Shown here in pieces: positions 12,401 through 14,695 of a stretch of DNA of 64,000 bases. The DNA lies in NCBI GenBank assembly GCA_014905635.1, contig JABVCE010000013.1, positions 1,054,001-1,118,000 on the forward strand. Direction: 5' to 3'. The DNA comes from Scenedesmus sp. PABB004 (taxonomy: Eukaryota). A program made the position numbers and the translations under genes. A model generated the notes under the pieces. The model was given only the letters and a program-made list of their open reading frames with translations. It had not been told where the DNA came from and made no database searches. Every line of letters begins with the position of its first letter. The stretch's first letter is position 1.

Positions 12401-14695
12401 TGCCGGGGCCGCCCACGGCGTGCAGGTTGAGCGGCAGCGTGGCGGTGAGGTCGCCGGGCGTGTAACCGGCGATCATGTAGCCGGGCAGCAGCTCTGCGTG
12501 GTGCGGCGCGGCGTGGCGCGGCGTGGCGCGGTGGGCCGGCGGCGGCGTGCGCGTGGCGCGCTGCGAGCAGCGCCGCCCCGCGGCGCGCGCGGCGCTCACG
12601 GTTGCAGGCCTGCACGGAGGTCGCGCCCTTGATGGTCGTCGTCCAGCCGGTGGGGCAGCTCATGCACTGGATGGCCTTGATGTCAGTCACGAGCACCATG
12701 CCGGAGCGGTACGTGCCGACCGGGCACGTGATCGAGAGCCCGCCGTCCAGGTAGCGGCCGGGCGGCAGCTCTGCGCGGCGGCGCGTCGCCACGCGGTGGG
12801 CGTGTGGTGAGCTTGGCGCCGGGGCAGCGGCGAGCCGGCATGCAGCGGCCAGCAGCCGCCGCGGCACTCACGGCAGACTTTGTTCTTGTCGTCCTGCAGG
12901 TAGGGGTAGTTGGCGGGCGTCGCAAAGCCCGCCGGGCAGCGCACGCAGGTGACCAGGCGGTTGTACGGCCCCGGCGAGTAGGTGGAGTTGGTGCACTCCG
13001 GCGCAGGGTCGCCCGCCTTTTGGGGCAGCACGAAGCCGCCGCGCGCCCAGCAGTCGCTGCGCCGGCTCGAGCGCTCCGCCTTGGTGATGAGGCCGTCGTA
13101 GAGGGGCGGGTTGCAGGGGATGAGCTCGCCGGTGTTGATCGACGGAATGGCGGCGAGCCCGACGCTGCGCGGGCCGTTGTAGCCGGGGCAGAAGCTGTTG
13201 AGCGGGCAGGGGCGGCACTGGTACTGGTTGGTGGTCCCATCCTTCAGCGCCTGGTAAAAGCCCGGCCGGCACACTGCGGCGGAGGCAAAGGTCTGAGGGC
13301 GGGGGCGGCCGCGCGGCGCGCGCGCGCAGGGCTGGTGAGCGCGGGGCGCGCGGGGCGCGCGGGGCGGGCGCTCACCGCACTGCACGATGCTCGAGCCGTC
13401 GGGGCCGGTAATGCCGAGGTGCCCCGCCTGGCAGCGCAGGCAGACATAGGTGTCGCGGTTGTCCAGAGTGCGCACGGTGCAGCGCTTGGGCGCGCACGCG
13501 GCAATGGAGTCAGAGCACTGCGGCGGGCCCGGCGCGGGCTCCGGCGCCGGGGACGGCGCCGGGGGAGGGGGCGCGCCGCCGTTGACGACGGTGGTCCAGC
13601 GCTGCGCGGGGTCGTTCGCGTCGCAGGGCGCCGTCGAGACGTCGCCGACAAATGCACAGAACTGGTTTGCTGCGGAGCAGCTGGTCAGGCAACGGCCATT
13701 CGAAGCCGCGCGCAGCATGCGGCCGCTGAACTGGTCGGCCTCGCCGTCGTAGTACCTGCACGGGCGAGGCGAGGCGCGCACAAGGGTGAGACGCTGGCGC
13801 CCGCAGCCGCCGCGGCTGCGGCCATGCCCGGCGTCGCGGCGGGCGCAGCGCCGGGGAGGGCGGCGGCGGCGCGCGCACCAGCGCTGGTTGGGGGCATAGT
13901 GGCACGGGTAAACGATGACGTTGCCGTGGTCGGTGCCGCCGCACGTGACCCCGATGCACGCGTCTACGCAGTAGCCGCCGCTCTCGAGCGCGAACTGGCC
14001 GCCGCCGCGGTCGTTCATGGCCCAGTCTTGCAGCGCCGCGCCGCTGAGCGCCGGCTGGCTGTAGACGTTGTACACGGGCGGCCCGTCGACGACCCACCCT
14101 GCACACTCGGCAGACCTGCAGATCTGCATGACCCGGAACGTGGAGGGGTTCAGGAAACCGTTGACGCTGGGACCTGGGCGGGGCGGCACGGGCGGGGAGC
14201 GGGGCGGTCAGGCGCCGGCGGGTGGCGGCCGCCGCGACCGCGGCTGCGCAGCCTGCGTCCGCCGCGTGCGCGGCTGGCCGTCGCCGGCGCTCACTGAGGC
14301 AGGCCTTGATGGTCATGTCCCAGTTGAGCCCCTCCTGGCAGGTGCACGCGTAGCGGCCGTTGGCGAGGTTGACGCACCCCGTCGTGCCCGGGCGGCCGGT
14401 GCAGGGGTCGGTGGAGCATCCTGTGCGCGTGCAGGCGGCGCCCTGGGTCAGGGCGGCCTGGCAGGCAGGCCTGGCGGCCTGGCGCGCCGCCGAGCCGTGC
14501 GCTGCGCAGCGCGCGCTGCCCGCGCGGCCGCCGCCGCCGCTTCGCACCGCGCATCACCACCTCCTGCTGCAGAGTGCGGGGACGGCTCTGCAGGCCGTCG
14601 TCCTCCGCGAGCAGCGCGGCTGCGCGGGAGCAGGCCGCCGGCGCGACGAGGGCCAGCAGCACCAGCGTCGCGCAGGCCAGAGCCCGGCGCGCCAT
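9492..14695 (-). CDS. Secreted Cys-rich modular lectin, copy A: signal peptide, EGF-like, ricin-B lectin, Pro linker, CxxCPxG (GCC2/GCC3-like) repeats, PAN/apple-like modules
   Basis: MARRALACATLVLLALVAPAACS signal; 6-Cys EGF-like exon; QxW motifs (LQDW, NQRW, AQRW); many CxxCPxGxY repeats. Mirror of the 12-exon gene at 17867-23043. Confidence 0.88.

Follow-up and report, generated by a model that had tools for sequence, protein, structure and literature searches.

Two copies, here called A and B, of a gene for a secreted protein with a ricin-B lectin head on a cysteine-rich stalk lie head-to-head in opposite arms of an inverted duplication in the alga Scenedesmus sp. PABB004. They are found in the 64,000-nucleotide stretch of contig JABVCE010000013.1 that was analyzed as a whole and that we call the window. 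Arm-to-arm gene conversion holds the arms near-identical, exons and introns alike, and a sharply bounded 576-bp tract coinciding with the lectin head has escaped this homogenization. As judged from the divergence within the tract, the heads are old paralogous sequence sitting in freshly homogenized genes, and not a case of fast protein evolution. The explanation that we favor, at a probability of roughly 0.5, is that selection removes conversions by which one head would replace the other, in which case the heads would be functionally different and two glycan specificities would be kept on one stalk.

The protein alignment has 35 differences in 1298 columns, and 33 of them (31 substitutions and 2 one-residue indels) fall within residues 95-226, leaving only A256E and L1006P outside the lectin head. 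An initial annotation, made from the letters of the window alone, had proposed a variable lectin head on an otherwise invariant secreted scaffold in a green alga, and the assignment to green algae is right for this strain. Its hand count of 31 substitutions and 2 single-residue indels is exact, it gave about 2 residues as differing in the ~1000 amino acids downstream, and its coordinates for the head are right within a few bases of exon 3 as we model it (Table 1). The signal-peptide and EGF peptides that it called identical are so, with 3 synonymous changes in exon 1 and none in exon 2.

Aligning the 2 arms by nucleotide gives the extent of the diverged patch. In copy B at 18316-18890 there are 93 substitutions in 574 aligned nt, with 20 further gap columns, and the last difference of the patch is at B 18891 / A 13644. 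The same position is the first of only 6 substitutions in the 4160 nt of the core at B 18891-23050, for a Jukes-Cantor (JC) distance of 0.0014. Introns 4-11 are identical between the copies, and the 1053 downstream codons contain 5 nucleotide differences. The inner (5') flank at B 17788-18315 has 16 substitutions in 528 nt (JC 0.031, ~97% identity), and the outer arm at B 23051-26521 has 114 in 3440 nt (JC 0.034) along with microsatellite indels. The initial annotation had described the head as flanked on both sides by identity, which holds for the 3' flank at 99.86% and needs tempering for the 5' flank at 97%, where a diverged piece of intron 1 also lies. Elsewhere in the arms the dense diverged spots are shorter than 50-100 bp and consist of microsatellite-like sequence in a second duplicated gene. 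Expressed per neutral site, the patch carries ~0.25-0.3 substitutions versus 0.0014-0.03 elsewhere.

The edges of the patch lie at most 54 bp from the ends of the head-coding interval, for which random placement has a chance of ~0.013, a post-hoc figure. A crude conversion model with a uniform rate gives escape probabilities from 6e-7 to 0.056, and of 0.01 or less when the intron or silent-site distance is used. Inside the patch there is one run of 61 nt without any difference (chance ~0.01), which looks like a short conversion tract touching no amino-acid difference, and fits with conversion being tolerated where nothing changes.

The heads are taken to be old, and not the product of a burst of amino-acid change, because the introns and silent sites of the patch have diverged as much as its coding sequence. 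Values of p are 0.24 for the first 87 nt of intron 3 (JC 0.29), 0.166 for exon 3 (JC 0.19) and 0.21 for the part of exon 4 that encodes the head (JC 0.25); the initial annotation had itself noted that the neighboring introns diverge too. The synonymous distance dS of the head is 0.29 by the Nei-Gojobori method (NG86) and 0.86 by maximum likelihood (ML) with codon frequencies; NG86 understates dS because the GC content at third codon positions (GC3) is 0.957. The substitution spectrum of the patch is ordinary, with 51 transitions, 42 transversions, symmetric AT/GC changes and no base bias. A targeted mutator is therefore excluded, and we reject targeted hypermutation of the head. In head A, GC3 is below that of its own downstream sequence, at 120/137 (0.876) vs 1025/1070 (0.958), p = 0.0003, and in head B it is like its downstream, at 126/135 (0.933) vs 1026/1070 (0.959), p = 0.18. 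Less GC-biased conversion, a relaxation of codon selection or another origin could each explain the low value in head A.

Architecture of the protein and its lectin head

In both copies the order is a signal peptide, recognized by eye, an EGF-like module, the ricin-B head, a linker rich in proline, and a long cysteine-rich stalk made of Ephrin_rec_like (TNFR-like) and PAN-like modules. Inspection of the translation by eye, with no predictor, finds no apparent transmembrane segment or membrane anchor. Against Pfam PF00652 Ricin_B_lectin with its cut-off of 29, the full protein scores 35.4 bits for B and 37.8 bits for A, confirming what the initial annotation had called a ricin-B head, and the single exons alone reach 15-16 bits, under that cut-off. 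PF07699 Ephrin_rec_like scores 75.7 bits in 4 stretches of B and 73.5 bits in 3 stretches of A with a cut-off of 23.1, and exon-by-exon scans give weaker EGF, PAN and TNFR-like matches. Going by domain content only, the role is likely to be extracellular glycan binding, in the cell wall or matrix, or in adhesion between cells or to microbes.

The threefold repeat of the head ends with QDW, QRW and QRW, at residues 140, 188 and 241 of A and 139, 186 and 239 of B, in keeping with the (QxW)3 definition as cited in a part of PMC3355094. The boundary between the beta and gamma repeats is exactly where intron 3 lies. All 10 of the 10 head cysteines and all three QxW motifs are kept in both copies, which agrees with the initial annotation, and the CVD and NQRW core residues are kept in both heads as well. 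Both heads are intact, and because this core of Cys, QxW, CVD and NQRW is conserved, they look functional.

We take the motif of a ricin-type sugar site to be one in which an Asp follows a Cys and a stacking aromatic residue precedes a Cys, together with Asn-Gln-x-Trp. By this motif only the beta subdomain is canonical, reading CVD ... Y-P-C ... NQRW in both copies, and it is the putative sugar site; the alpha and gamma subdomains are without the Asp and the Asn. The Asp, aromatic and Asn-Gln-x-Trp of the beta subdomain align in register with the CBM13 of PDB 3vsf, in an alignment that is weak at E = 0.033. For the fold, P0017, a relative 41-44% identical to the heads, was folded as a stand-in using a shallow alignment, with an overall predicted local distance difference test (pLDDT) score of 53. 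Its head is predicted with 12 strands at pLDDT 60-86, and the best Foldseek matches are to the Marasmius oreades agglutinin (MOA), ThreeFoil, 3vsf and other beta-trefoils. The head passes as an R-type lectin domain by sequence, and its fold prediction comes from P0017 only. The variable residues were placed through the alignment on the secondary structure of P0017, and not on pockets.

Possible selection on the heads and the rival explanations

The favored explanation has several steps. Arm-to-arm conversion homogenizes both genes apart from the lectin-head tract, and conversions replacing one head by the other would be eliminated by selection. The heads would then differ functionally, mainly in loops round the beta subdomain's single putative sugar pocket, and the alga would retain two glycan specificities on a common stalk. 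Further findings speak for it besides the placement of the patch. Protein-database searches show no third head resembling a donor, and the beta subdomain is the richest in replacements, with 15/48 positions against 10/51 in alpha and 8/55 in gamma. Within it, the Asp162-Trp190 segment holds 10 of the 33 differences in 29 residues, and the remaining 125 positions hold 23 (p = 0.077). The ratio of nonsynonymous to synonymous distance (dN/dS) by NG86 is 0.33 for alpha, 1.29 for beta and 0.30 for gamma, rising to 2.49 for Asp162-Trp190, where 9 codons have replacements vs 1 that is silent.

Weighing against selection, dN/dS is below 1 for the whole head, at 0.49 by NG86 (bootstrap 95% 0.28-0.82, with 3 of 500 replicates at or above 1), 0.54 by LWL85 and 0.14 by ML. 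The initial annotation had stated that dN much lower than dS, with changes away from the binding pockets, would count against two specificities, and by its own measure the whole-head dN/dS leans toward refutation. The excess of replacements over the rest is not significant in Fisher tests, either for beta (p = 0.063) or for Asp162-Trp190 (p = 0.070), and is gone under the ML codon model, which gives dN/dS of 0.20 and 0.43, respectively. The dN of beta, 0.25, is not above the intron distance of 0.29. The variable sites favor non-strand positions (7/59 strand vs 26/95 non-strand, p = 0.026, with the strands from the P0017 prediction), and 21 of the 33 sites also vary in both outgroups. Relaxed constraint alone predicts both results, and specificity tuning too predicts the first. 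The canonical-site assignment is made from a general sequence motif and the weak 3vsf alignment. The low GC3 and the greater number of derived states in head A could be a decay of constraint there and not a second specificity. Polarizing with the two outgroup heads gives 8 derived states in A and 4 in B, with the same 21 of 33 not polarizable; at p = 0.39 this is not significant, and asymmetric evolution of one head is rejected. Also, a small non-coding piece of intron 1 is likewise unconverted, so that escape does not require selection. On balance, of the proposal in the initial annotation that selection preserves the heads against conversion, what stands is that the rest of the gene is homogenized and that the divergence peaks on the head, a published signature as given in a part of PMC3924837; what does not sit well with it is the whole-head dN/dS below 1 and the equally diverged intron. 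Two glycan specificities under selection are plausible but unproven on the present sequence comparison.

The alternative to be taken most seriously, though we consider it unlikely, is that conversion is sequence-dependent, and that a stretch left unconverted by chance for a time, or flanked by indels, accumulates too many mismatches to form heteroduplex and is then free to diverge, so that its position on the lectin would be a coincidence and the amino-acid changes would be those tolerated by loops. This would account for introns in the patch that are as diverged as the exons, for an ordinary substitution spectrum, for a dN/dS below 1 overall, for variable sites that are loop positions and vary in the outgroups too, and for the second small unconverted piece in intron 1, and the 5' edge of the patch does lie in a run of intron-2 indels with 13 gap columns. 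At the 3' edge, however, there is no indel, and the patch is the sole long diverged tract in 8.7 kb, the other spots being the short microsatellite-like ones. Coincidence is also made harder to accept by the match of both tract ends to the head within 54 bp, by the low escape probability at a uniform rate, and by a replacement-to-silent ratio that peaks round the one canonical, putative pocket.

It is improbable, to a greater degree, that the duplication is young, at the ~0.03 divergence that is the common level of the flanks, and that one copy took its head from a third paralog, ~25% diverged and of the same exon-intron structure, by ectopic conversion or recombination. The sharp patch edges would be expected from such an import, as would a head A composition unlike its own downstream sequence (GC3 0.876 vs 0.958), and the genome has at least one further EGF plus ricin-head gene, P0016 (KAF8059644.1). 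But P0016 is rejected as a conversion donor because 42-47% identity is far too distant, and no closer head is found among proteins of 168-2000 aa or 52-167 aa, nor in 1.84 billion representatives, although a donor that is unannotated or unassembled may exist. Least credible, at a small chance, is an assembly artifact in which what look like two copies would be alleles, or a fold-back chimera, with allelic variation making up the patch. Near-perfect inverted identity over 4 kb is indeed the pattern of some long-read artifacts; yet a unique 3-kb spacer with a real gene separates the arms, the arms lie inside a 1.18-Mb contig, and their divergence is graded along their length. Independent metagenome contigs, short and of low depth, also span arm A's inner edge and connect the EGF exon with head B.

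Relatives and comparison with known systems

An exhaustive HMMER search of 1.84 billion representatives returns 34 matches at E ≤ 1e-3, and only P0016 and P0017 resemble the head along its length. P0016 is a fragmentary model of 133 aa from another contig of PABB004, with an identity of 42% to head A and of 47% to head B; it has an EGF end and a ricin-type head, and is the third such gene in this genome. P0017 is a metagenome protein of 283 aa, 41% identical to head A and 43.5% to head B. P0015 (780 aa, internally repeated) matches the head profile at E = 9e-18 in 10 stretches and has no BLASTP match to either head; the match is possibly compositional or in a wrong frame. Word-based searches of 5.8 billion clusters give no third close head, with only the pair's own cluster at 168-2000 aa and nothing at 52-167 aa. 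Two scans of metagenome contigs with the head profiles show no relative of the heads, and within the 64-kb window there are only the two heads and no template or cassette array. The variable-head "system" of the initial annotation is an overstatement for 2 copies with no third close head in protein-database searches.

The stalk is better represented, with 12 proteins at E ≤ 1e-3, 11 of them non-self. None of these 11 has a ricin domain by precomputed annotation, and a scan of 10 of them, all but P0014, gives no ricin match at E ≤ 0.01. In P0005, P0006, P0007, P0011 and P0012 a hydrophobic N-terminus runs directly into the stalk, P0008 and P0009 are N-terminally truncated, and P0010 has 410 additional residues of another kind. 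The closest stalk ortholog is P0004 of Tetradesmus obliquus (1511 aa, 53% identity), which is without a ricin head, and an ortholog with one was not found in the protein-cluster and metagenome searches. P0004 has instead ~464 extra N-terminal residues with repeated matches to F5/8 type C (discoidin-like) domains, which are sub-threshold at 23 bits vs a cut-off of 28.2. This hints at different carbohydrate-binding heads on one stalk family. Because the stalk relatives are without a ricin head and several start straight with the stalk, the EGF plus ricin module looks like an addition to a normally headless stalk.

A wider and doubtful proposal can be made from these proteins, that a conserved, secreted stalk rich in cysteine is a chassis in Scenedesmaceae for differing carbohydrate-binding heads, and that in PABB004 selection holds two ricin heads of different glycan specificity apart, against ongoing arm-to-arm conversion of all the rest, in a minimal two-allele-like "fixed heterozygosity" serving extracellular glycan recognition. 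Within one genome some members would be headless and two would carry EGF plus ricin-B, while the Tetradesmus ortholog may carry F5/8C-like repeats. The sugar-secreting alga would use the heads when its cells interact with each other, with the cell wall or with microbes.

Two freshwater-metagenome runs from one study share 5-6% of words with the locus, in short low-depth pieces of which many continue into unrelated sequence. One low-depth piece of only 87 nt crosses arm A's inner edge (14738-14825) without a mismatch. Another, 281 nt long and also of low depth, runs from the EGF exon through intron 2 into the first part of head B (18242-18523), with 8 differences and 3 gaps. The matches over these stretches are at 97-100%, and that freshwater environment may hold a close relative of PABB004 with the start of a B-type head. 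Copies A and B and P0016 are not in the main text or in one supplement of the cell-wall proteomics paper PMC11839794, and the literature searched has no description of this algal protein family.

The locus fits a known category, that of a divergence peak in converting duplicates, as a new example. In the part of PMC3924837 that bears on it, such a peak is given as a signature for target sites of selection, and selection against conversion is described for opsin exon 5 and for RHCE/RHD. As in human red/green opsin exon 5 and RHCE/RHD (same part of PMC3924837), paralogs that undergo conversion have a narrow diverged region on the part that sets ligand or spectral specificity. Unlike the opsins, where the exon is high and the flanking introns are low, the intron within the patch is here as diverged as the exons, and the tract extends over 576 bp with 33 amino-acid differences rather than being centered on one or two sites. 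Islands of divergence are also described, in a part of PMC3728101, in the GOT1 paralogs of the copepod Tigriopus californicus, which is another protein in another organism.

The inverted arrangement recalls the palindromes of human Y ampliconic genes with their arm-to-arm gene conversion (PMC2997549); in both, the arms are ~99.9% identical and carry genes. Unlike in those palindromes, each arm here measures just 8.7 kb and includes an unconverted tract with sharp bounds. To our knowledge, no unconverted tract of this kind belongs to the standard picture of the Y palindromes. The head itself shares PF00652 and the QxW threefold repeat with R-type (ricin-B, CBM13) lectins such as the Marasmius oreades agglutinin and the CBM13 of Clostridium thermocellum 1,3Gal43A (3vsf). 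It differs from these in having ten cysteines, in its position between an EGF-like module and a TNFR-like stalk, and in keeping the canonical residues, by the motif given above, in only one of three subdomains, and its sequence resembles solved structures only weakly (E = 0.033). True variable-receptor systems, such as diversity-generating retroelements, lamprey VLR and Dictyostelium tgrB1/tgrC1, likewise combine a constant scaffold with a binding part that has diverged; unlike these, the locus has two variants only, no cassette array in the window and an untargeted mutation spectrum. We reject a hypervariable or diversity-generating receptor system, given two heads, no third close head and no base bias.

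The inverted duplication and what the locus means

The strain is called S. glucoliberatum in the reference list of PMC10762512, and the GC content of the window is 71-82%. Repeat finding and a MAFFT alignment of the arms show an inverted duplication of ~8.7 kb with a spacer of ~3 kb, and the gene models of both copies were assembled from open frames and GT-AG splice sites. Table 1 lists the features.

Table 1. Coordinates of the inverted duplication, its genes and the parts of the diverged patch, as positions in the window
Feature	Position	Strand	Content or basis
Arm A of inverted duplication	5992..14774	-	Lectin-stalk copy A and second duplicated gene; MAFFT
Arm B of inverted duplication	17788..26521	+	Lectin-stalk copy B and second duplicated gene; MAFFT
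Copy A coding region	9492..14695	-	12 exons, 1298 aa; all splice sites GT-AG, open frame
Copy A signal-peptide exon (exon 1)	14548-14695	-	
Copy B coding region	17867..23043	+	12 exons, 1296 aa; all GT-AG
Diverged patch, copy A	13644..14237	-	3' end of intron 2, exon 3, intron 3, first 112 nt of exon 4
Diverged patch, copy B	18316..18891	+	576 bp; counterpart of copy A 13644..14237
Exon 3, copy A	13879-14173	-	Alpha and beta subdomains of ricin-B head
Exon 3, copy B	18369..18657	+	Alpha and beta subdomains of ricin-B head
Exon 4 head part, copy A	13590-13755	-	Gamma subdomain to its QRW
Exon 4 head part, copy B	18780..18945	+	Gamma subdomain to its QRW
61-nt difference-free island in patch, copy A	13730-13790		Last 35 nt of intron 3 and first 26 nt of exon 4
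61-nt difference-free island in patch, copy B	18745..18805	+	Last 35 nt of intron 3 and first 26 nt of exon 4
Homogenized core, copy A	9485-13643		Counterpart of copy B core
Homogenized core, copy B	18892..23050	+	5 substitutions in ~4.16 kb, exons and introns alike
Intron 1 hyper-diverged piece, copy B	18043..18064	+	Indel-rich GC repeat, outside lectin exons
Spacer gene, red chlorophyll catabolite reductase-like	15280..16876	-	Pfam PF06405, 29.5 bits on N-terminal part of P0003; tblastn mapping
Second duplicated gene, arm A copy	~6100-8560	+	
Second duplicated gene, arm B	23971..26415	-	814-codon open frame, poly-Gln/(GCA)n tract

The model of copy B is letter for letter the public protein KAF8062093.1. 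The public model of copy A, KAF8062092.1 (P0003, 1587 aa), joins the spacer gene to copy A over 14401-16876 of the minus strand and omits the signal-peptide exon. Since exon 1 of copy A is intact, with its 3 silent changes vs copy B, this fusion is probably an annotation error. The spacer gene between the arms is single-copy. Copy A starts ~585 bp downstream of the spacer gene's last mapped exon, copy B is oriented divergently from that gene, and upstream of the ATG copies A and B have only ~80 bp in common. A Pfam scan of the second duplicated gene gives no family; its copies are ~3.4% apart with microsatellite indels, far above the stalk of the lectin gene.

If the escape from conversion was neutral, what is left is a clean case of mosaic conversion with limited wider interest. 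If the two heads bind different glycans, the locus would offer a compact, natural case from a green alga of a ligand-binding module that selection maintains against concerted evolution, with boundaries at base resolution and 4 kb of homogenized stalk as a built-in internal control. That would point to an algal extracellular protein family with exchangeable lectin heads, which could bear on surface and microbe recognition by coenobial or sugar-secreting algae.

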